A stretch of DNA of 64,000 nt from Candidatus Thorarchaeota archaeon. Its GTDB lineage: Archaea; Asgardarchaeota; Thorarchaeia; Thorarchaeales; Thorarchaeaceae. Under the pieces are notes generated by a model, which did not search any database, had not been told where the DNA came from, and saw nothing but the letters and a program-made list of their open reading frames with translations. Position numbers and translations under genes: made by a program. Positions 24,861 to 40,162 of the stretch are shown piece by piece. The stretch is taken from assembly GCA_004524445.1 (NCBI GenBank), contig SDNP01000002.1, positions 64,001 through 128,000 on the forward strand, written 5' to 3'. Position 1 is the first letter of the stretch. Each line of letters begins with the position of its first letter.

Positions 24861-25441
24861 AGAACATGTGTTCTAGTTTCTAGTGAAAGTTCTTGGCATA
24901 TTTGTACATCTATGATTGTGTTGCGGCCAGAGAGAGCAACGCCAGAAGAGTGTCCTTCACAAAGGAGCTCTACGGATTCACCTATTCCTGGAAGACCAAA
25001 TCAGGTATGAAGACGAAAAGAAAGATTGGACTCATTGAGGAGTGTATGGGAGCTGAGCCAGTCACAGACTCTGCCATTCTAGTCCCCGATAGCTGCAAGG
25101 ATCAATTTGACGAACTCTTTGTATATTATCGGGATATACTAAAAATCAAAATCTTCAAAGTGGAGTCAGAAGTATATTTGTAATACAAATAATACATTTT
25201 TGTAGGAACAATAGAACACGTGTTCTAAATCTAACCAGACCCCATTATTTCCAGTGGAAGACAATATAAATTACAAAGAAGATAATTAGTAAAGTATAAA
25301 TAGTAGTATATGTACCCCGATATTATCTCCATTTCTATATATATCATACAACGGGTTCCTGGATCCTCATCCATTTCTATACTTCCAGTGGAAACGAGGG
25401 GGTATATTAGCCAGCGAATATTAACTAGAACACGTGTTCTA
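24861..25441. repeat. Three AGAACAYGTGTTCT palindromes
   Basis: 24861-24874, 25212-25227 and 25426-25441 (last two are the perfect 16-mer TAGAACACGTGTTCTA). Confidence 0.9.
24893..25183 (+). CDS. Small conserved-type archaeal protein (possible ferredoxin-like/PaaX-Cas2-like fold) adjacent to origin
   Basis: 96 aa; YIYD, RRVSFTKELYG, basic hairpin KTKSGMKTKRKIGL, SAILVP; fold is inference. Confidence 0.55.
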   Translation: MAYLYIYDCVAARESNARRVSFTKELYGFTYSWKTKSGMKTKRKIGLIEECMGAEPVTDSAILVPDSCKDQFDELFVYYRDILKIKIFKVESEVYL

Positions 25442-27425: not shown

Positions 27426-28037
27426 ATGAGTGGTAATACTAGTAATACAGACACTGTTGATATTGTAATCTCTGGCGTTGGAGGACAGGGAGTCTTGACC
27501 CTGGCAGAAATCTTGGCGAAGGCAGCACTAGCCGAGTCCAAAAATGTTAGAGTTGGAGAAATACATGGGATGGCTCAACGTGGGGGTCACGTCATCTGTA
27601 CAGTTCGTATCGGACCTGATGTAAGTGGACCTATTGTTGATCCCGGTACAGCAGACATCTTAGTTGGTTTCGAACCAATTGAAACGCTGCGAGAGATAGA
27701 AAGCATAAGTAAGGACGGCAAAGTACTCATGAACTCAAATGTCCTTCATCCCGTAGCAGTATCAATGGGCAAAGCTGAATATCCAAAACATGCTGACATT
27801 GTAGAATCGATTAAACCATTCACCAAGAATCTCATACAATTTAATGCAATGAACCTTGCAAAGGAAGCGGGTAGTGATAGGGCAATGAATATGGTCATGT
27901 TTGGTGCAGTCATTGCACTTAACCTCACAGGCATATCAACAAACACAGCAAAGAAGACCATTAGAAACACATTCCCCGGGCGCTATGAGGACATCAACAT
28001 CCGCGCTTTCGAATCTGGAATGAAGCAAATCAATTAA
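27426..28037 (+). CDS. iorB: Indolepyruvate:ferredoxin oxidoreductase beta subunit
   Basis: GVGGQG, EIHGMAQRGG, NMVMFGA. Confidence 0.93.
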   Translation: MSGNTSNTDTVDIVISGVGGQGVLTLAEILAKAALAESKNVRVGEIHGMAQRGGHVICTVRIGPDVSGPIVDPGTADILVGFEPIETLREIESISKDGKVLMNSNVLHPVAVSMGKAEYPKHADIVESIKPFTKNLIQFNAMNLAKEAGSDRAMNMVMFGAVIALNLTGISTNTAKKTIRNTFPGRYEDINIRAFESGMKQIN

Positions 28038-28088
28038 TAGCACCAAACATCTGTTCAGGACCAGATAATTTTTGTATTATTTGTAATA

Positions 28089-30455
28089 CTATCTTGTAAG
28101 TCTGCTTGCTGCAACTGCCACTTGCCCAACTGAAATACCACCATCTCCAGGGGGAATTGAGTCTTGAAGGAGAGGCTCAAGCCCATGACGATTCAATTCG
28201 GCTATTATTGCTCTTGTGATAATTCTATTCAAGGCAACTCCACCAGAAAATCCAACCTGTCGTATGCCATGATTATCAGCCGCTTGAGCTGCAATTCTGG
28301 CAAGCCCCCTTCCTACTGCTTGTTGTACTGCCATGGCCAGGTGTGATCTCTTTTCTCCTTGTTCTTTCATTTCAAGGAGTCGAAGAAGAAGATGCTCTGT
28401 GTCAAGCTGAGGACTTCCATTTGGTGATACTATATGTGGCTCAATTGATAGCTTTGTTGGCACAGCAACTGCTTCCAGTTTCATTGGACACTCCCCATCA
28501 TAGCTATTCTGGAAACATACTCCAAGAGCAAATGCAGCTGCATCTAGCACACGACCGGTACTGCTACTCTCAATCGTGTTTATATTTTTGTCAAGGGCAA
28601 TGAGCATCTGCTCGAAGGATTCCTCATTCATGCATATATCAGCTGCAACTTCTACATCTCGGACGTACCCAAACAACTCCTCTCTGCTTAACGAACCTCC
28701 TACGATTCCCATAAACGGTCGTGCCGCATATTTTGCTGATAGATCTCCACCAACATACAACTGAGGAGTCAAACCTCCAAACTTGGAGAAATGCCTCCCA
28801 TTCCCAACTAGGACTTCTCCTCCCCATGCTTCGCCATTAGGCCCGTAGCCATAACCATCGGCTGTAATACAGATAATACTTGTATCAGTCGTTAGTTTGT
28901 TATCAACTAGGATGGAAGCCAAATGAGCATGGTGATGCTGAACTTGGACCAAGGGAATATCCTTCTCTTGGGAGATGCGCCTTGCAAGATCAGTACTGAG
29001 AAACTCAGGATGTAAATCACAAGCAATACCATCAAGTTTCTCGACGCCAATGAGACTCATCAGATGTTGATACGCATCCCTAAGAAATTGAATATTCTCT
29101 AATTGGTCCGTATCACCAATGTATTGAGTAGGATATATGCTAGTTGCCTTCAGAATTGACGCGGTAGCTTTTTCTTCTGGACCCGTAGCAACAAGATTAA
29201 GACCATCACCAGGATAAGAAATTGGAATTGGTTCTGGCACATAACCTCTCGATCGTCTTATGAAGACAGAATTTTCATTAGTTACGTACTTGATTACAGA
29301 ATCATCAGCTCTTTGCCATATTCTTCTATCATGTACCAAGAAGTAGTCTGCAATCCCAGAGAGGTCTTTTCGCATTTTCTTTGGATCGATGTACATCGGT
29401 ATGCCAGTAGGGTTGGCACTTGTCAAAACAATGGCAGGTTCATCCATATAATGAAAGAGGAGATGATGAGAAGGAGCGTAGGGGAGCATAACACCTACGG
29501 TGTCCAGTCCGGGAGCTATGCTATCCAATGAATCTCGTGGTATTATATTCAACGCATTTTGTGACTCTCTTTTTCTAACAAGGACAATAGGACGTCTCCA
29601 CGAAAGAAGATCGTCTAATTCGTTCTCCGACGGATTGAAAGCAGACTCAACAATTGACTTGTTTCTGGCCATAATTGCGAACGGCCGCTGCTCTCTCATC
29701 TTCAATAAACGAAGTCTATTGATTGGCCTCGAGTTTCTAACCGCAGTGGCTAGATGAGTACCGGATATGCCTTGTACTGCCACGATTGACCCCGACTCTA
29801 TTAGCTCTGCCGCACTTTTCACTGCATTTTCTTTGGCAATATTGTTGCCCCTATCATTGAAAAGCTGGTATGTAGGACCACACTCCTCACATGCTGTTGT
29901 CTGTGCATGATATCTTCTATCCAACGGGTCTGTATAACCGGTATTACAAGTATTACATAACGGAAAATCAACCATGGTTGTGTGAGGTCTATCGTATGGA
30001 AGATCAGTGATAGTAGAGTATCTTGGTCCGCAAGCTGCACACGAAATGAATGGATAGAGATACCATCTCGATTGAGGATCGAATAGCTCTTCAACACAAG
30101 TGTCACAGATCGAAATGTCGGGTGGAATCACTGGTTCCGCGTTACCAGTTTTTTTTGCAGAGGATTTGATTATGGAAAAATCGTCGAATGAGTTCTGCTT
30201 TGGCAACCATTCTGTGTCCAGTTGTTCAATTCTTGAAATGGATGGAGGGTTCTCTTTCAACTCATTAAGCAAAGACTTGATTCTTGTCTTCTTTCCTTCG
30301 ACAACAATCTCAACACCTGCATCTCCTAGATTCAAAACATATCCTTTCAAGGATAGTCCCTTTGCCACTCGATATACAAATGGTCTAAATCCCACACCTT
30401 GTACAATTCCATTGATGTGGATTTTAGCTCTGACACTCAGTTTATGAAACCTCAC
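28089..30455 (-). CDS. hypF: Hydrogenase maturation carbamoyltransferase HypF
   Basis: GIVQGVGFRPFVY acylphosphatase domain, Zn fingers, RRYHAQ, HHHAH, DGYGYG, PPGDGGISVGQ. Confidence 0.97.
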   Translation of the reverse strand: MRFHKLSVRAKIHINGIVQGVGFRPFVYRVAKGLSLKGYVLNLGDAGVEIVVEGKKTRIKSLLNELKENPPSISRIEQLDTEWLPKQNSFDDFSIIKSSAKKTGNAEPVIPPDISICDTCVEELFDPQSRWYLYPFISCAACGPRYSTITDLPYDRPHTTMVDFPLCNTCNTGYTDPLDRRYHAQTTACEECGPTYQLFNDRGNNIAKENAVKSAAELIESGSIVAVQGISGTHLATAVRNSRPINRLRLLKMREQRPFAIMARNKSIVESAFNPSENELDDLLSWRRPIVLVRKRESQNALNIIPRDSLDSIAPGLDTVGVMLPYAPSHHLLFHYMDEPAIVLTSANPTGIPMYIDPKKMRKDLSGIADYFLVHDRRIWQRADDSVIKYVTNENSVFIRRSRGYVPEPIPISYPGDGLNLVATGPEEKATASILKATSIYPTQYIGDTDQLENIQFLRDAYQHLMSLIGVEKLDGIACDLHPEFLSTDLARRISQEKDIPLVQVQHHHAHLASILVDNKLTTDTSIICITADGYGYGPNGEAWGGEVLVGNGRHFSKFGGLTPQLYVGGDLSAKYAARPFMGIVGGSLSREELFGYVRDVEVAADICMNEESFEQMLIALDKNINTIESSSTGRVLDAAAFALGVCFQNSYDGECPMKLEAVAVPTKLSIEPHIVSPNGSPQLDTEHLLLRLLEMKEQGEKRSHLAMAVQQAVGRGLARIAAQAADNHGIRQVGFSGGVALNRIITRAIIAELNRHGLEPLLQDSIPPGDGGISVGQVAVAASRLTR

Positions 30456-30598
30456 TGTTCTGAATTCGTGTTATCGATATTAATACCATGAAGTGGCAAA
30501 TAATCTCTGTATCGATATAATTGTATTACAAGTATTACAATTAGCAATCGACACTCACAGGTAGGTTTTCTTAAGGCATGGCACATACCCAATTGTGA

Positions 30599-31021
30599 AT
30601 GACATTGACTTCCTCAAGGACACCTCATCCGAAACCGGGGAGAGAACCCATAGCTACCCCCTCAATCCTCGCAAACATTCCCGACTGTCTTCGGCAAATA
30701 CTTGTCGAGGCCGCTGATAACTCAAAGAAGAGAAAGAAATCAATTCTGATATCTAGTAATAGTTTGGCTAATAGATTCATTCTAGAACGATGGGGAATAC
30801 GACCATCTCAGCGCAGGAAATTCAGAAATCTATTTTCACAAATTCGCAAACACTGTAGGAAGATATTCGATCATCTTCTCAATAGGAAAAGAATGGAATT
30901 CGATATGAATTTGAATCGTTATTTGTTTGGAATCTACAAGTTCGATGAAATCCGCGGAAACACAATCCTTGCTTTTGTACAAGTTCCTGAGAGAGAAGGA
31001 TGGACACTTCCCTGCAAGTAA
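30599..31021 (+). CDS. Basic hypothetical protein (possible nucleic-acid binding)
   Basis: 140 aa, Lys/Arg-rich helical core; flanked on both sides by GTAWTAC arrays. Confidence 0.6.
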   Translation: MTLTSSRTPHPKPGREPIATPSILANIPDCLRQILVEAADNSKKRKKSILISSNSLANRFILERWGIRPSQRRKFRNLFSQIRKHCRKIFDHLLNRKRMEFDMNLNRYLFGIYKFDEIRGNTILAFVQVPEREGWTLPCK

Positions 31022-31198
31022 TATGTGTAATACAGTGAAACCTAAGCAAAATCTTTATCCACTATTCGGCGTATACAAAAACGTATCCGTAGAGAGTAAC
31101 AGAAAACCGATTTGACAAAGTCCTCTCATAACTCTTTAAAATAGAAAATAGAGGATTATGAGCCCTTTTCAAAAAACCTCGTTCTCTCCAAAAATCAG

Positions 31199-31747
31199 GT
31201 GGAGATTATGACTCAAGGCACCAACGACGTGAATTTCGAGAAGATAAGGAAGGCTTCCCAGGGCACCAAGAGAGTGCTAAGGGAACCAATCATGAAGTCA
31301 TTACTACAAAATTCCCTCCTCACGGAAACGCAACTAGAAACGCTCCTAATTGATTTGCTTGTCGAAGACAATTTCGGTAAGCACATTCCGTATGATACGA
31401 AGGCCTCACTGCGTACAACTGAAAATGGCAAGGGTGTTTCTAGAGGAGCATTCAATAGGACACTTCAACAAGCTCGCGAAAATATTACAAAAAGCATCTA
31501 CACCATGCTTCTGTTAGGATACCTTGGTCTATTTGAAATTGCCATATTTCGGCCATTTGAAGAAGTTGCAGCCAAGATAGGCGACTATAGACATATCAGG
31601 GAGGTATTGGCAGGAAGAGAAAAGTTAACAGAAGAGGATCTTGAGAGTCATAGGGCCGCAGAAGAAACAATCATTTCTGCACTCCATGAGCTGGCATCGC
31701 CACTGAATCTTAAAACTGAACTATCAAAAGAGACTGGATCTGAATAG
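31199..31747 (+). CDS. Conserved-type archaeal HTH-like protein
   Basis: SLLTETQLETLLID...GVSRGAFNRTLQQARENITKSIYTMLLLGYLG (HTH-like recognition helix). Confidence 0.65.
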   Translation: MEIMTQGTNDVNFEKIRKASQGTKRVLREPIMKSLLQNSLLTETQLETLLIDLLVEDNFGKHIPYDTKASLRTTENGKGVSRGAFNRTLQQARENITKSIYTMLLLGYLGLFEIAIFRPFEEVAAKIGDYRHIREVLAGREKLTEEDLESHRAAEETIISALHELASPLNLKTELSKETGSE

Positions 31748-32213
31748 AGTCTCCGTGCAAGCTTCTTCCGTATTATTCCAGGAATCAATGATTGCGAAGT
31801 AAAAAAATTGGCACGAATGTGTCGTGTTTTATGACTGAACTCGTAAGCGACGAGTAGTTCCGCACAGTCCTACCTACACTGTATCTACTTGGAGGTATAT
31901 TTGTATGAGGAGATAGAGATAGCAATGCAAGTTGAGATCTGTGACTTATGAAACAAACCTCGAAACCAGCATTCAATCATTACTCCACAACACACTCACT
32001 CTATATAGGAATACATTGATACATAGTTCTAATCATAGAACAAGCATTTTTGGCACTATTATTCGTATTTTTAATAGTAATAAATTATTTACAGAAAAAT
32101 TTGCACGAATCATATTATTATTTGTAATACAAATAATACGTCACCCCCTCATTTTGAAAAGTAATCTTGTTTTAATACAAAATGAACACATGAACAGTGG
32201 TAGTGAATAGAGA

Positions 32214-33428
32214 TTGGATTACAGTAAGGCACGAAAACGATTACGGGAACAAGTGAGGAAGAAAATCCAGCAGCTATCGGAAATCGAGCTCAGTAAAGCA
32301 ATAACTAATGCCATTGGCGAGAGGCGGATTAGGGATTTAATTGATTATCTTATTGGTATTGAATTAGAGGAGGGTTGGAACCAATCTCTAGACTATTTGG
32401 GGGATTCACTAAATCGAGAGTATGAAATCCCTCCACTGACCGGAAGGAAGACAAGAAGAATGGAACCCCTCAAATTTCGGGAAGTCCTTTTTTCTATCTT
32501 CGATTGCCAAGGGCTAGAAGCAATCAATATAGACACCATGACCATAATCTCAAAACTCCATAATGCACAATCAATCACAAATGCAGAGATATTCTTTAAA
32601 GAAATAGTTAATGAAAAACTTCAGTGTCATTTGAAGGATTCCAACCTTCTCTTCATTAATATCGATGGTGTGAAATCTTACCTTGACACCAACCTGATAA
32701 ATCAGATCCATGAAAAGATGGAGGAAAACCTGTTGTCAGTTTCACTGAAGAGCAATTCCGAGTCGGTTGACATATCACCATTATGGTACACAGAGTATGG
32801 TCGGACAGCTCTGTGCAGACTTGGGATACAGGGAAGCCATATCGACAAACAAACACTCGACATGGTATTATCCGTATTACCAGTATCACAAACTGTTCGG
32901 GGCAATATTACTAATAATATGCATGCAAGACGCCTGAATCCTCCCCTGAATGATGAATATCAATCTCTGCTTAGAGCAATGATTGAGCAAGATATTATGA
33001 CTCTTGCAAAACTTGGTAGTCGAAATGCGATTCCTCTCATGAACTACTTGCTTGAAGAATCTGTTGACACTTTTAATTCAGAATACACCTCCCAAAAATA
33101 TTCCAAAATAGCAGAGCAGTTATCCAATCATTTGTTTATCCGGTCAATCGATTCTATCCTGTCGTTTGAAAAGATGACAAGGGCCGATGATCATCGCATC
33201 TCAAGTCTAGCAATTATTGCTCTAGGCAACTACTACCACGAATCCGCAGTTATCATCTTGGCAGAAATACTGTGCAGAACAAAAAACAGTGATCTTGTAA
33301 ACTACGCATCACAATCACTTAGACGGATCAAGAGCAAATTTCCTGAAACCAAACCTATACTCAAGAAATTGATGGATACTATGCACAATAATTGCAAGCC
33401 GCTCAGACAATTTTTGGAGAGTTACTAA
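32214..33428 (+). CDS. Hypothetical helical protein with C-terminal HEAT/PBS-like repeat
   Basis: 404 aa; DHRISSLAIIALGNY...AVIILAEIL...LVNYASQSLRRI. Confidence 0.6.
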   Translation: MDYSKARKRLREQVRKKIQQLSEIELSKAITNAIGERRIRDLIDYLIGIELEEGWNQSLDYLGDSLNREYEIPPLTGRKTRRMEPLKFREVLFSIFDCQGLEAINIDTMTIISKLHNAQSITNAEIFFKEIVNEKLQCHLKDSNLLFINIDGVKSYLDTNLINQIHEKMEENLLSVSLKSNSESVDISPLWYTEYGRTALCRLGIQGSHIDKQTLDMVLSVLPVSQTVRGNITNNMHARRLNPPLNDEYQSLLRAMIEQDIMTLAKLGSRNAIPLMNYLLEESVDTFNSEYTSQKYSKIAEQLSNHLFIRSIDSILSFEKMTRADDHRISSLAIIALGNYYHESAVIILAEILCRTKNSDLVNYASQSLRRIKSKFPETKPILKKLMDTMHNNCKPLRQFLESY

Positions 33429-33515
33429 CCAACTCAACACAGAAATCATGTATTATATGTAATACAAAGCTAAATCACAACAGAATTAAAACTGTAGTGG
33501 TAGTGAACCAGTCCC

Positions 33516-34904
33516 ATGAGCGGTACATTAGATTCCAATGCAATGCAGATTGGCAAATTTTTCAATCCAAATAGTGTTGCCTTGGTCGGAGCTTCGGCTG
33601 ATTATAGAAAACTGGGAAATTCAATTCTCATGAACTTACTTGCGTCAGAGGTAGAAGTATATCCTGTCACTCGAAGTAGAACCCAGGTTCTGGGAGTAAA
33701 GGCATATCCCAGTCTCATAGATTTGCCGAAGAGAGTTGATCTCGTTATCATTGCAGTTGCCGCCAAATATTGTCCCAATCTGATGCAAGATGTAAGGCAG
33801 GCAGGTGCTCACCATGCTGTGATAATCTCTGGAGGTTTCAGTGAAACTGGTGATGAAGGAGCTAAACTGGAAGAGCTTCTTGTGGAAGAAGCCAAGAAGA
33901 ATGAAGTACGGATTATTGGTCCAAATTGCGTTGGGGTTTCCAACAGTCGTTTATTCAATGGCACATTTACGATGATGCCCGAAAGAGGTAATATCGCCTT
34001 AATTTCGCAAAGTGGTGCTCTTGGTGGAATGCTGATATACACGACACGGTCGAAACGAATAGGGATGAGTAAGTTCGCAAGTATTGGAAATGCAGCTGAT
34101 GTTGAATTTACCGAGCTACTCGATTATTTCAGTAAGGACCCAAAGACATCTGTTATCGCTGTCTATATTGAGGGTGTCGAACATGGCCGTGCACTTTACG
34201 AGTCATTAAGAACTGCATCGCGGAAAAAACCCGTAGTGGTTCTTAAGGGTGGAAAAAGCAAAGCGGGAAGCAAAGCAACGCTGAGCCACACAGGGTCTCT
34301 TGCCGGGTCACCTCGATTGTTTGATGGGATGATTAAACAAGCAGGTTGTGTTTGTGCACCCACCTTTGACTCGTTCTTGGAAGTCTGCAAGTTATTTGAC
34401 TATCAGCCTCTGCCACAAGGTCGTAATATTGGTATTATCAGTAATACAGGGGGTGCCGCAGTCTTAGCAACTGACGCTGCATCCGCATTGGGGCTCAAGA
34501 TACCTACACTTGAAGAATCCACAATGAAAGAAATGAGACAAGCAATGTCACCAATGGCATCCGTTGAAAATCCTGTTGATGTTGTGGCAAGCGGGGGTAG
34601 AAGAGAATACAAACTGGCAACAAAGTTAATGCTGGAAGATAACCATGTTGACATGCTATTGGTAATCTGTGGAGTCCCAACTTTTGCGGGAATGACTCAG
34701 ACAGAGCATGCTGCTGGTACGTTGGAGGGAATTAGGACTGCAAATAACAACAAACCCGTTGTTGGTGTTTGGCTTTCAGGAGATGTGGGTAAACCTGGAA
34801 AGGATCTACTTGAGATGAATCGAATTCCTTGTTATGACGATCCTTCACTGGCGGCGTTATGCATGGAACGAGTTGCTTCATATTCACTTCATGAACAGAG
34901 GTAG
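33516..34904 (+). CDS. acdA: Acyl-CoA synthetase (ADP-forming) alpha subunit
   Basis: FNPNSVALVGAS, IISGGFSE, IIGPNCVG, ISQSGA, SHTGSLAG phospho-His, NPVDV. Confidence 0.9.
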   Translation: MSGTLDSNAMQIGKFFNPNSVALVGASADYRKLGNSILMNLLASEVEVYPVTRSRTQVLGVKAYPSLIDLPKRVDLVIIAVAAKYCPNLMQDVRQAGAHHAVIISGGFSETGDEGAKLEELLVEEAKKNEVRIIGPNCVGVSNSRLFNGTFTMMPERGNIALISQSGALGGMLIYTTRSKRIGMSKFASIGNAADVEFTELLDYFSKDPKTSVIAVYIEGVEHGRALYESLRTASRKKPVVVLKGGKSKAGSKATLSHTGSLAGSPRLFDGMIKQAGCVCAPTFDSFLEVCKLFDYQPLPQGRNIGIISNTGGAAVLATDAASALGLKIPTLEESTMKEMRQAMSPMASVENPVDVVASGGRREYKLATKLMLEDNHVDMLLVICGVPTFAGMTQTEHAAGTLEGIRTANNNKPVVGVWLSGDVGKPGKDLLEMNRIPCYDDPSLAALCMERVASYSLHEQR

Positions 34905-34931
34905 ATATGTTTCTGTAATACAATTATTACC

Positions 34932-35222
34932 TTAGCTTTCAAGATGAACTCCAGCGATATTTGGAAATTCTTCCTGAACTGCATCTCTCAGCTTGCGTTC
35001 TACCCACATGCTCAGATTAATTGCCCGTTCTGTTCTTACAGCCTGGAGGCAGGACCTCAGGTCTGTACTAACGCTAAAAGACATGATTGGACTATTCCTT
35101 TCTTTATTTGGAACGGCTACACTTTCTTGTTGCTTAGCTTCTGCAGTGGTTTCAATTTCTTCCTCTGTTGTATCCTTGTCGCGTTTCTCCTCTTCTTTCC
35201 TATATTTTCCTAAGAGACTCAA
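34932..35222 (-). CDS. Small ribbon-helix-helix protein with disordered charged N-terminus
   Basis: C-terminal beta strand IMSFSVS, helix DLRSCLQAVRTE, turn, helix NLSMWVERKLRDAV; N-terminal ~45 aa charged and low-complexity; start directly abuts ATPase stop. Confidence 0.7.
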   Translation of the reverse strand: MSLLGKYRKEEEKRDKDTTEEEIETTAEAKQQESVAVPNKERNSPIMSFSVSTDLRSCLQAVRTERAINLSMWVERKLRDAVQEEFPNIAGVHLES

Positions 35223-36197
35223 CTATCTTACCTCCTTCAATATACTTGCATACGCCTCTGAAACCAATCTGGCAATTTCCACATTTATTTCAGGGCTACC
35301 ACTCTCCCGAAGGTTTTCAGCTGCAACCTGCTGGCACCCTCGAGCCAGCATACGAATATCCCGTGGATTTCCTCCTGCAGCATCATTGATCACCTCAATT
35401 GCTTCTTCATGGAATGGATAAACATCAAAATCTGTAGGATCAAAGCTATCGATTTCCCCTTTAGCATACGCTATTCTTCTGCCAATGAATTCTTTCGCTT
35501 TGCCGTCTTCGAGCTTCGGAATGTCCAACGGTTCTGTCCTATCAGCTATTTGAGGGAGAAAATTAAGCATTGCATTCCAATACTCTGCAGTTCCACTCAT
35601 CACGAGTGTAACTATTGGTTCATCCAAGGTTCTGGGATACTCATCTTTCATTTCTTCCGTAGGAAGATCGGCAAGGTATCTGAGTTTGTGAAAGGCAGCC
35701 TCTTGATTATCTGCAACATCCTCGATGAAAAGAGCAGTTCTACTCTGTTCCTCTATGTAGCGACGTACACACTCCTTTGCAACCGCCTCTATAATTTGAG
35801 AAGACTCCCAAGAGCGTCTATACTTGATTCTCAACGAGTCGGCAATGGCAGCAGCCATTTGTTTCTCATATAGACCAGTCATTCCAACGTACCCTGTGAC
35901 AAATTTATTTCCCCTTCTATCGGCCAATGTGGGAAGGTCTCTCAATGCCAATAACATTAGAGTACTCTTTCCCGAACCTACAGGGCCTCTAAGGAAAATA
36001 TGACGTTCATTGGTTATTATTAGATCCACAATACTATCAAGAAAATCAGGGTGCTCCACATAGAGCCTCGAGTCCGGCATTTTGAATCCTCGAAATGGTG
36101 AGAATCTTGCGCCTATCTTCTCCTCCCACGCTCGAAGTGTTTCTTTTCGAGTATTGAAATGACGAATCAATGCGGATTCGTGAACTGCAATTGTCAT
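35223..36197 (-). CDS. ExeA/TniB/MuB-like AAA+ ATPase (AAA_22-type)
   Basis: N-terminal SPF motif, Walker A GPVGSGKST, variant Walker B LFIEDV, sensor-1 LVMSGT, Arg finger IADR, sensor-2 GGNPRDI. Confidence 0.8.
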   Translation of the reverse strand: MTIAVHESALIRHFNTRKETLRAWEEKIGARFSPFRGFKMPDSRLYVEHPDFLDSIVDLIITNERHIFLRGPVGSGKSTLMLLALRDLPTLADRRGNKFVTGYVGMTGLYEKQMAAAIADSLRIKYRRSWESSQIIEAVAKECVRRYIEEQSRTALFIEDVADNQEAAFHKLRYLADLPTEEMKDEYPRTLDEPIVTLVMSGTAEYWNAMLNFLPQIADRTEPLDIPKLEDGKAKEFIGRRIAYAKGEIDSFDPTDFDVYPFHEEAIEVINDAAGGNPRDIRMLARGCQQVAAENLRESGSPEINVEIARLVSEAYASILKEVR

Positions 36198-36390
36198 TGT
36201 TTCAATTCCTTTGTATCACAAGTAGTGTTTGTATTACAATATTTCGATGGCTTTTCCTACATAAATATTGCGAGAGAAGTCAGCTTCTGTATCATGGTCG
36301 TTTCCATACGGAACCTTTTTGAGCAACTACAAACTGCCAGAGAGCTAGCAGAGATAGAAACCTGTTTCTAACCTCTGGGAGGAATAAGAA

Positions 36391-36742: not shown

Positions 36743-37380
36743 ATGAGTAAAATCCTGCCTGGAACAAAGACCACAAGGATGTAATTACTTCGAATTAAGA
36801 ACAGGAAAGAGCTTGGAGAACGAGGTCATAATCTGCTAAAAGAAAAGCGTGATGCATTGATTATGGAATTCTTCAATACCACAGCCGAAATAAAAAAGGC
36901 AAGACAGGGTGTGGAAGCTGCTCTCTTAGAAGCCTACTCTGACTTAACACAAGCCAAGATGATGATGGGCCCAGCTCGAGTAAAAGCATTCATCTATGCA
37001 AGCATGATGAAGAACAGGTTGAATATCAAAACCAGATTGCTTATGGGTGTTCGAGTACCTGTCTTGTCAGTTGAATAGGAAATACCTGAATTGCCCATGC
37101 TTTAGCTGGCTCCAGTACCAAACTTGATATTATGGCTAAAAGATTCCAAGAGGCTTTGATTGCCATATTGGGACTAGCTGAAATTGAATGGACCCTGAAG
37201 CGACTAGCACTTGAGATTGAACGAACTAAGCGACGAGTATCTGCTCTGGAAACCATTGTTTTACCTCGCTTGGAAGCAACCGCACGGTTTGTCAGGCTGG
37301 CATTAGAGGATCGGGAAAGAGAAGAATCCATTCGCCTTAAGATAATCAGAAACCGGATGCAAGAAGAGAAGTCTGCTTAG
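36743..37380 (+). pseudogene. atpD: A/V-type ATP synthase subunit D pseudogene
   Basis: TTRM*LLRIK...GHNLLKEKRDALIMEF, MGVRVP, EIERTKRRVSALE...REREESIRLK; TAA at 36782, TAG at 37076, -1 frameshift near 37097. Confidence 0.85.
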
Positions 37381-37830: not shown

Positions 37831-38676
37831 TTATCTGTTAGAATCAAGGTTGATATCAAAGACCATATGACTAACGCCCGGTGAATACTTCTTAATCGGT
37901 CTGGAAGAAATTTTGGCCATGAATCCATATTCTGAAGATTCAGTAATAATTGTATTACGGATTTTCCTCTCATCATTTCCATGTACTAAGCTGTGCATAT
38001 GGATAATCCCGCCCCGGAATCGTAATCCATTCAACGCATGTGGCAAATAATCAACTGTATCATGTAGATATCCCATCACAATTCTATCCGCATCCCTAAA
38101 TGTCACATCTCTGCAGTCTCCTAATACTGCCGTCATATTCTCATGAACCTCATTCATTCTGATGTTCTGACATAGGAAATCGTATGCCAAGTCATTAATA
38201 TCAATGGCCAAGACATTTGCCCCTGAATGAAAAGCTATTGGCAATGAAAACTGGCCGACACAAGCAAACATGTCAACAACATGCTCATCTGAACTAACCT
38301 GCTGAGAGAGAAAAATTCTCTCATTCACATTGCCTCGAGAAAATGTAATTCGCATCGGATTGAGTTTGAATTCTATCCCGTTCTCGGTATGAGTTGTTGT
38401 TGTGTTCTTACTACCAGCCACTAGTTTGTAGTTCGGAATTCGTTTTTGACCACGTGTTGGCCCCATTCTTACTCCAACGGATTTGGATCTAGACTCAAAT
38501 TCTAATGTGAGCTCTCCAATAACATCTGCCAAAGGTAGTAGATCGGGGTGAATACTCAATAGCACCACGTGACCGATTAATTGATACCCCTTGGGAAGCT
38601 TAGCAGGGTCCTCTATAGAATTGCCAATCGCATTCACTAAGAAATCATAATATTTCATGCTCTCAACTTCAATCAA
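37831..38676 (-). CDS. Trm5/Tyw2 (Met-10+) family SAM-dependent tRNA modification enzyme
   Basis: YQLIGHV, HTENG, FSRGNVNER, VVDMFACVGQFSLP, ADRIVMGY, KKYSPG. Confidence 0.85.
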   Translation of the reverse strand: MIEVESMKYYDFLVNAIGNSIEDPAKLPKGYQLIGHVVLLSIHPDLLPLADVIGELTLEFESRSKSVGVRMGPTRGQKRIPNYKLVAGSKNTTTTHTENGIEFKLNPMRITFSRGNVNERIFLSQQVSSDEHVVDMFACVGQFSLPIAFHSGANVLAIDINDLAYDFLCQNIRMNEVHENMTAVLGDCRDVTFRDADRIVMGYLHDTVDYLPHALNGLRFRGGIIHMHSLVHGNDERKIRNTIITESSEYGFMAKISSRPIKKYSPGVSHMVFDINLDSNR

Positions 38677-39906: not shown

Positions 39907-40066
39907 CTCGACCTCACTTTCTATAGTATCGATTTAAGGATATCCTTAACGTTCACCATTTTTTGTATCAGGGTTTCAATTCTCTACATAATGTTATTTT
40001 CACATTCCATTTTCGTAATACCAGTATTACAATACAGGGGAGAAATGTTTTACAAAAGGAATGAGA

Positions 40067-40162
40067 TGGAGCCCCAGGCGAGAGTTGAACTCGCGATCTC
40101 CTGATTACAAGTCAGGCGCAGTTTCGACCTGCATAAGCAGTAGGCCGCTTTGCTACTGGGGC
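40067..40162 (-). tRNA. tRNA-Thr(TGT) with 19-nt D-loop intron (40123-40141)
   Basis: GCCCCAG/CTGGGGC, CCTGA-CTTGTAA-TCAGG, CCA; BHB helix CGGC/GTCG around CTGC-TTAT-GCAG. Confidence 0.9.

Follow-up and report, generated by a model that had tools for sequence, protein, structure and literature searches.

The 64,000-nucleotide window analysed here (contig SDNP01000002.1, positions 64,001 to 128,000, of the Candidatus Thorarchaeota archaeon assembly GCA_004524445.1) carries on its minus strand an operon of two abutting genes, the first encoding an AAA+ ATPase and the second a protein of 96 amino acids (aa), here called the small protein or adaptor. A field of ~15 arrays of the heptad GTAWTAC surrounds the operon and reaches a candidate replication origin (oriC). 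Clustered cis-sites next to an operon of an NTPase and a small predicted DNA-binding protein are the layout of a partition system. The operon and its parts are:

35223..36197, minus strand: ExeA/AAA_22-type AAA+ ATPase gene, 324 aa (open reading frame, ORF; single copy in the genome)
35961..35987, minus strand: Walker A GPVGSGKST, residues 71-79 (G74, G76, and K77 invariant in all lineages)
35715..35735, minus strand: Walker B strand ALFIEDV with swapped acidic pair, residues 155-161 (from the alignment of lineages)
35355..35375, minus strand: sensor-2 GGNPRDI in the AAA+ lid, residues 275-281 (R279 invariant in every lineage)
34932..35222, minus strand: gene of the 96-aa adaptor, its TTG start directly after the ATPase stop (ORF; 297 homologues of 91-109 aa)
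35196..35222, minus strand: codons for the N-terminal tip MSLLGKYRK (L4, K6, Y7, and R8 invariant in 33 sequences)
34965..35090, minus strand: ribbon-helix-helix (RHH)-like domain, residues 45-86, with PIMSFSV strand segment, helix, AINLS turn, and helix (from the monomer model)

The operon and its site field beside a candidate origin

The junction of the two genes reads ...GGAGGTaagaTAG followed directly by TTG..., with the ATPase TAG at 35225-35223 and the TTG of the small gene at 35222-35220. An earlier reading of the letters without database searches (the sequence-only reading) had seen the stop abut the start in this way. A Shine-Dalgarno sequence, GGAGGT, is located at 35235-35230, 8 nt upstream of the TTG. 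In the translation from this TTG, the tip MSLLGKYRK is kept at the protein level, while the adjoining linker is not.

The window has 24 copies of GTAWTAC where 4.6 are expected, and 0 of 100 shuffles reach 24; two copies flank the operon, at 34915 after it and at 36231 before it. The proposed tie between these sites and the operon holds, as they are unique in the genome, surround the operon, and recur in related genomes; the heptad itself, however, is only half of the unit. Judged from the flanks, the true unit is a 16-bp heptad pair or a 25-bp heptad triple with a 9-bp period (written out, GTAATACAAGTATTAC). Allowing up to one mismatch, the 2.79-Mb assembly has 16 pairs, every one of them between 25180 and 40030 of the window. 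At the same stringency, spacings of 7, 8, and 10-12 bp together yield 6 sites, compared to 16 at 9 bp. After allowing for dinucleotide content, GTAWTAC is not depleted genome-wide. Maximal-order Markov k-mer enrichment was abandoned as a motif finder, having missed even the positive control.

The arrays follow each other every 0.5-2 kb over 15 kb. From the origin onward, the candidate oriC and the sites (no strand assigned to any of them) are:

25212..25441: oriC candidate with inverted origin recognition boxes (ORBs), AT-rich core, and flanking palindromes; bounds the site field
25180..25195: first site pair, touching the oriC candidate
27433..27448: perfect site pair within codons 3-8 of a 203-aa gene
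28074..28089: site pair overlapping the hypF stop codon, at convergent 3' ends
28864..28879: site pair within hypF
29932..29956: triple array within hypF that encodes the zinc knuckle CNTCNTGYT
30523..30538: perfect site pair upstream of hypF
31018..31033: site pair overlapping the stop codon of the ORF 30599-31021
32115..32139: triple array upstream of a 404-aa HEAT-like gene
32865..32889: triple array within the 404-aa gene
33450..33465: site pair in the 33428-33516 spacer
34423..34447: triple array within a CoA-ligase-like gene
34915..34930: site pair GTAATACAATTATTAC, 1 mismatch, between the small-gene stop and the convergent CoA-ligase-like gene
36213..36237: degenerate triple array GTATCAC-AA-GTAGTGT-TT-GTATTAC, ending 15 nt before the ATPase ATG
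37943..37958: site pair within the NAC/Trm5 overlap
40015..40030: perfect site pair between PAN and tRNA-Ser, end of the field

A tRNA-Ser(CGA) gene is located at 40067-40162 (-), just past the final site pair.

Of the 15 arrays, six are intragenic and five fall in 5' spacers, while the other four coincide with stop codons or with the 3' ends of convergent genes. By its position, the array at 36213-36237 is likely the operator of the operon. Such an operator would also be expected of an autoregulated operon with a local regulon, in which the small protein represses nearby promoters while the co-transcribed ATPase has an unrelated job. RHH proteins are mostly repressors, and the five arrays in 5' intergenic regions, found upstream of hypF, PAN, the 404-aa gene, and the CoA-ligase-like gene, suit this explanation. 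Nevertheless, we regard it as improbable: 10 of the 15 arrays are intragenic or at 3' ends, and the adjacent genes share no function.

In the oriC candidate, canonical ORBs at 25248 (-) and 25383 (+), reading TTCCAGTGGAAA...GGGGT, are inverted around the AT-rich core, which carries two copies of TCCATTTCTATA. Palindromes of the form TAGAACACGTGTTCTA at 25212 and 25426 bracket the ORBs, a third variant is found at 24862, and the cumulative GC skew of the contig peaks and switches at this position. The first array touches an origin palindrome. This contact speaks for a replication-control module, a rival that we consider unlikely but the best placed of those weighed here. In such a module, the ATPase would be an Orc1/Cdc6-like AAA+ protein without winged helix and the small protein its DNA-binding subunit, and the site field, much as datA, DARS, or SeqA do, would adjust origin firing, licensing, or sequestration instead of moving DNA. 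The sites extend 15-40 kb on one or both sides of the origin and also fall within genes, unlike initiator boxes.

Conservation in related genomes

Distribution was surveyed in 400 genomes of the phylum, all assemblies being metagenome bins; families are denoted by f-numbers, with f1 for that of the window. Of 85 f1 genomes, 77 have a single ATPase gene each, at 76-98% identity. Elsewhere, it occurs in f2 (69%), f13 (46-48%), f15 and f16 (28-37%), and f28 and f29 (25-28%), and it was not found in several large families of the survey. Five f1 genomes without ATPase also lack the small gene and the sites, and in the closed-looking genome G320 the entire 16-kb region is missing together with its housekeeping genes; these absences were judged to be assembly gaps and rejected as natural knock-outs. 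An exhaustive search of 1.84 billion representatives returned 26 matches at E<=0.001; the ATPase family is therefore small and isolated. Nearly all relatives with database names are Thorarchaeota.

A small gene directly follows the ATPase gene wherever the latter was found, that is, in the seven Asgard families examined and on a stray metagenome contig. The sequence-only reading had made its proposal dependent on this linkage of orthologs in other genomes, and the order is the same in all seven families. With the small-protein profile, one copy directly after the ATPase gene was detected in each of the genomes G000, G313, G311, and G082. In a contig from a public run in Logan (L045:480-1729), a small gene that begins with MGSSLMAKYKAAK abuts the gene of a distant ATPase relative (270 aa, with IIVEDI as Walker B). 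This pair is preceded by two TACTAATACGTTTATG direct repeats, which gives the same layout in an unplaced lineage.

The sites accompany the operon in the same way. In whole genomes of the window's family, 8 of 9 (G369), 12 of 12 (G313), and 24 of 24 sites (G336) lie beside the ATPase, and so do 11 of 12 in the f13 genome G082, whose ATPase is 47% identical. Sites are densely spaced in f13 within a 950-bp spacer that follows the small gene. Across 86 family genomes, 56 of 63 perfect 16-mers are found within 20 kb of the ATPase on the same contig and the remaining 7 on other contigs of fragmented assemblies, while a reversed control pattern occurs 13 times. More distant families use other words: f2 has (C/T)TATTAT arrays with a 9-bp period, f16 has GATATC-N7-GATATC (in a closed genome of 3.6 Mb, 6 of the 6 sites present lie beside the operon), and f15 has GTTAAC clusters. 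The motif word thus differs between lineages that have the layout in common. The palindrome TGGAACA-NN-TGTTCCA, found close to the f15 operon, was dismissed as the f15 adaptor site; it is an origin-flanking palindrome that also brackets the ORBs of the window. Between genomes, the extent of the field varies from 12 to 40 kb, yet it is always anchored on operon and origin, which again argues against a local regulon.

Selection on a site within a gene can be followed in hypF. The codon position of the array is unchanged across four genera, in which it encodes the knuckle C(N/D)(T/S)CNTGYT, whereas other families keep CxxCxxEY. Since the array has been retained although it displaces this usual knuckle, the DNA word is selected in its own right.

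Origin proximity recurs as well. An inverted ORB pair is located 1-10 kb from the ATPase in f1, f2, f15, f16, and f29, a linkage in five families that also favours replication control. The distance between the ATPase and an orc1/cdc6 gene is 35 kb in four f1 genomes and 10 kb in f13. At the f13 locus, hypF (L002:1-198) and the orc1/cdc6 gene (L002:12822-15140) are near the operon; hypF is within 20 kb of the operon also in f2, f15, and f16. The origin-proximal gene neighbourhood thus seems to be conserved across Asgard families. Next to the origin in the window, an ORF of 96 aa at 24893-25183 (+) ends with its stop overlapping the first site array. It matches nothing in Pfam, NCBIfam, or PHROG, and ORFs like it stand next to ORBs at f15 loci (L037:11970-12326 and L040:8337-8693).

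The operon might, in principle, have been left here by chance as a remnant of a mobile element, a plasmid partition cassette, a toxin-antitoxin pair, or a defence system. AAA_22 ATPases do occur in transposons and defence systems, there is a weak match to a 'DNA transposition protein' (PHROG, E=0.006), and NCBIfam anti-phage models match 4 of 13 members of the wider ATPase family. The ATPase is, however, single-copy, syntenic, and 76-98% identical family-wide, its linkage to the origin holds across families, and the operon is set among housekeeping genes: the CoA-ligase-like gene, an atpD-like gene, NAC, Trm5/Tyw2, PAN, and hypF. A small membrane ORF is also among the neighbours. The neighbourhood survey of window ORFs and annotation revealed no transposase, secretion gene, integrase, or repeat borders near the operon, in agreement with the sequence-only reading on the first two. 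PADLOC gave no match for the ATPase or the small protein of the window and a marginal one for the f16 ATPase (BrxB, E=0.009). A chance remnant is thus very improbable and by far the weakest of the alternatives.

The ATPase and the small protein

GPVGSGKST, LFIEDV, and GGNPRDI, the three ATPase motifs picked out by the sequence-only reading, are all present and conserved in relatives. Walker B LFIEDV comprises residues 156-161, with E159 and D160 invariant in 17 relatives. The hydrophobic strand and the two acidic residues of the AAA+ pattern hhhhDE are present, but in the order ED. The pair is ED in the window's family, f13, and two metagenome relatives, DD in f15/f16, and DE in f29. Further, T203 is invariant, (D/S)R at 219-220 is conserved, and R279 is invariant, in the expected order of sensor 1, box VII arginine finger, and sensor 2, roles that are assigned by sequence position rather than by structure. 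Walker A, these three elements, and a C-terminal helical lid place the protein among the AAA+ ATPases. The deviant Walker A of ParA-type proteins, KGGxxK[ST], is absent from the ATPase, which combines the classical GPVGSGKST with an AAA+ fold and profile. As had been noted before, the protein lacks a transmembrane (TM) segment; its Kyte-Doolittle 19-residue mean peaks at 1.09.

The window ATPase matches Pfam AAA_22 with E=4.5e-5 at 24.2 bits, under the 27-bit cut-off, and TIGR03015 with E=2e-5, far under the cut-off of that model. Among 13 members of the wider family, TIGR03015 matches 11 (best E=1.3e-22), AAA_22 10 (best E=3.5e-17), and the orc1/cdc6 model TIGR02928 4 (best E=1.4e-9). On these profiles, we assign the ATPase to a diverged branch of the ExeA/AAA_22 group (COG3267, TIGR03015), of which it is not an equivalog. 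MuB, TnsC, and IstB, named as relatives in the sequence-only reading, are not the nearest families by profile; these are ExeA/PEP-CTERM-type AAA_22 proteins, followed by Orc1/Cdc6, and links to MuB, TnsC, and IstB are weak. TnsC, for example, matches with Z 6.6 at a root-mean-square deviation (rmsd) of 12.6.

The structure model of the ATPase, built from 17 close sequences, is poor (predicted local distance difference test, pLDDT, of 60.7) and reliable only in the lid. Lid residues 227-324 (block pLDDT ~70-94) match the lid of ORC1 with Z 8.6, rmsd 2.2, and 75 aligned residues, and those of the clamp loader (Z 8.3), RuvB (Z 7.4), and DnaA. The whole-chain Foldseek list is headed by archaeal Cdc6/Orc1. 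These fold matches and the four TIGR02928 hits are what the ATPase itself contributes to a replication-control reading. On the other side, the ExeA-type profile matches 11 of the 13 family members compared to 4 for Orc1/Cdc6, the fold ranking is soft at the given pLDDT, and genuine orc1/cdc6 genes exist besides the ATPase. A PF09079 search of the genome matched two other genes and not the ATPase. A winged-helix domain is absent from the ATPase, which ends with the lid at residue 324.

The small protein is composed of the invariant tip MSLLGKYRK, a linker variable in sequence and length, and a conserved C-terminal block. In addition to the four invariant residues listed above, S2 of the tip is invariant among the homologues, and K6 is kept in 38 of 38 sequences, distant positional counterparts included. 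Apart from the predicted DNA-binding domain, the tip is the most conserved part of the protein. This conservation, along with the strict coupling of the genes in seven families, points to a protein partner and counts against a local regulon.

In the monomer model, which like that of the ATPase is of low confidence (pLDDT 62), a short tip helix (residues 4-16) and a disordered linker precede an extended segment (45-49) and two helices (50-66 and 70-85), the latter joined by an invariant N69-x-S71 turn. Among the top 50 of an exhaustive structural alignment, the RHH proteins omega, SegB, CopA, PutA, NikR, ParD2, TacA, and Reg576 appear at Z 3.3-3.9, tied with unrelated helical hairpins. The f16 counterpart has a faint Arc match (E=0.053). 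The modelled C-terminal domain is consistent with an RHH fold. In every lineage, the gene after the ATPase encodes a small protein with a basic tip and a strand-helix-helix-like end. The small proteins of f15/f16 and of f29 were rejected as homologues at profile-profile probabilities of 0.1% and 0.7%, respectively, and are termed counterparts instead.

A possible origin-organising complex and its neighbourhood

The operon and the site field may constitute one origin-proximal, centromere-like complex that organises or segregates the origin, a proposal that we prefer to its rivals at even odds. A bolder claim, which we hold to be possible yet somewhat doubtful, is that it represents a further class of segregation machinery, with an AAA+ ATPase in place of the ParA, actin-like, or tubulin-like NTPase and an RHH adaptor coupling it to a multi-site chromosomal centromere at the origin. 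Gene linkage, motif conservation, genome-unique clustering of sites, co-variation with lineage, selection of intragenic sites, and origin proximity are the observations in favour of a common complex. From them we infer the identity of the site binder, the contact between tip and ATPase, the oligomeric form, and the cellular function.

In the proposed mechanism, dimers of the small protein would bind GTAWTAC heptads via an RHH-type beta-ribbon, two or three of them side by side with a 9-bp period, at ~15 arrays that extend for 15 kb to one side of oriC. Two flexible tails, each ending in the basic tip MSLLGKYRK, would protrude from every bound dimer. These tips would attract the ExeA-type AAA+ ATPase or set off ATP turnover by it, and the ATPase would oligomerise, thereby bridging the arrays into one compact complex. 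Alternatively, the ATPase might act as an ATP-gated DNA-bound partner that is released by the tip. The sequence-only reading, which pictured the N-tail as a possible regulator of ATPase filaments on DNA, is supported in part, by the gene linkage, the conserved tip, and the tie of the sites to the operon. As an outcome, the origin region could be segregated or positioned, or organised after replication. The array just upstream of the ATPase start codon would make the operon self-repressing.

Several points weigh against this proposal. No AAA+ motor was found among the known partition systems in the literature searched, so that the function is argued from layout; site binding by the small protein and its contact with the ATPase are predictions. 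The ED order in Walker B might entail slow or no hydrolysis. The RHH fold, which the sequence-only reading had already attributed to the small protein, is compatible with the structural alignment but finds no support in the searches: Foldseek of the model against the PDB returns no significant match (Arc repressor only at E=5), and no Pfam RHH model matches the window protein. Moreover, no homology to the small protein of the window could be detected for its counterparts in f15, f16, and f29, and no site motif was found in f29. Finally, genomes of the window's family share ancestry, which makes counts within the family non-independent and leaves ~four independent lineages.

Type Ib partition systems are among the closest known systems. 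In ParF-ParG of TP228 and delta-omega of pSM19035, an RHH centromere binder acts on the ATPase through a flexible basic N-terminal tail, and omega binds 7-bp heptads. The likeness includes arrays of short repeats, an operator before the operon, and the order of ATPase and then binder; omega is also a structural match of the small protein (Z 3.9). However, the type Ib motor is a ParA/MinD dimer with KGGxxK[ST], whereas the ATPase here is of AAA+ type with GxxGxGKS, arginine-finger box, and sensor-2 lid. Moreover, the type Ib sites form one plasmid locus, in contrast to a chromosomal site field of 15-40 kb beside oriC.

SegAB of the Sulfolobales is a chromosomal operon of an ATPase and a site-specific binder with sites near the operon, and SegB has an RHH-type core and an N-terminal region that interacts with the ATPase (PMC8682754, PMC12139799). 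SegB and the small protein superimpose with Z 3.9 and rmsd 2.1 over 46 aligned residues. SegA is a ParA-type Walker ATPase, though, SegAB has no sequence relation to either protein described here, and the present site field is far larger than that of SegAB and anchored at ORB elements. Bacterial ParABS possesses origin-proximal arrays of palindromic 16-bp sites, many of them intragenic, around the operon of the binder. The field described here likewise consists of origin-proximal 16-bp sites around the operon, many within genes, while ParB, a helix-turn-helix CTPase clamp, and ParA, a deviant Walker ATPase, have folds found in neither protein here.

On the side of the motor, the ATPase shares with ExeA/GspA and PEP-CTERM ATPases the 'PF...P...LYV' lead-in, GxGKS/T, and a G-x-PR sensor-2. 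Those ATPases belong to secretion or exopolysaccharide contexts and often have membrane or peptidoglycan-binding parts; in contrast, the present one has no TM segment and no secretion genes nearby, is coupled to a predicted DNA-binding protein, and mostly has ED or DD in Walker B. With Orc1/Cdc6, DnaA, TnsC, MuB, TniB, and IstB, which are DNA-associated ATP switches governed by a partner, it shares the AAA+ base and lid, the top fold matches, and an origin context. It differs from Orc1/Cdc6, DnaA, and TnsC-type proteins in having no winged helix, no transposase, and weaker profile support than for the ExeA type.

The operon and its field thus look like a partition or origin-organising system built around an ATPase class not known from such systems. 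The full-text literature searched, of incomplete coverage, held no account of chromosome segregation or organisation in Asgard archaea or of an AAA+/RHH pair, and the words 'segregation' and 'centromere' are absent from a 2026 review of Asgard archaea. The archaeal systems that surfaced were SegAB, with its ParA-type SegA, and the ParA-like HpaAB. What emerges is a concrete and testable candidate, conserved across lineages: two proteins together with a 16-bp site, mapped at ~15 places, beside a predicted origin. If the pair does serve a partition or origin-organising machine, it would add a motor class to the logic of partition and open a way into the chromosome biology of the lineage nearest to eukaryotes. 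If replication control were true instead, a split Orc-like factor with an RHH DNA-binding subunit would be new as well.

Within the field, one further gene recurs beside the operon elsewhere:

31199..31747, plus strand: 182-aa gene, family unknown (GVSRGAFNRTLQQARENITKSIYTMLLLGYLG); relatives directly beside the ATPase/small-gene pair at f15 and f29 loci

Its product matches nothing in Pfam or NCBIfam, and in Atlas only unnamed archaeal clusters and a faint sigma-70 region-4 lead were obtained. By gene position, it may be a third component of the system.

Salt-lake RNA libraries of three studies yielded short, 100% identical contigs that span 34725-35458 and 35835-36211. They give only a hint that the operon is expressed, as DNA carry-over is possible and the runs were chosen via the ATPase/small-gene sequence itself. 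Upstream of the operon, the atpD-like gene (A/V-type ATP synthase subunit D, 36743-37362, +) is broken at 36782-36784 by a stop codon in frame and, near 37090, by a frameshift, reflecting either an assembly error or a pseudogene.

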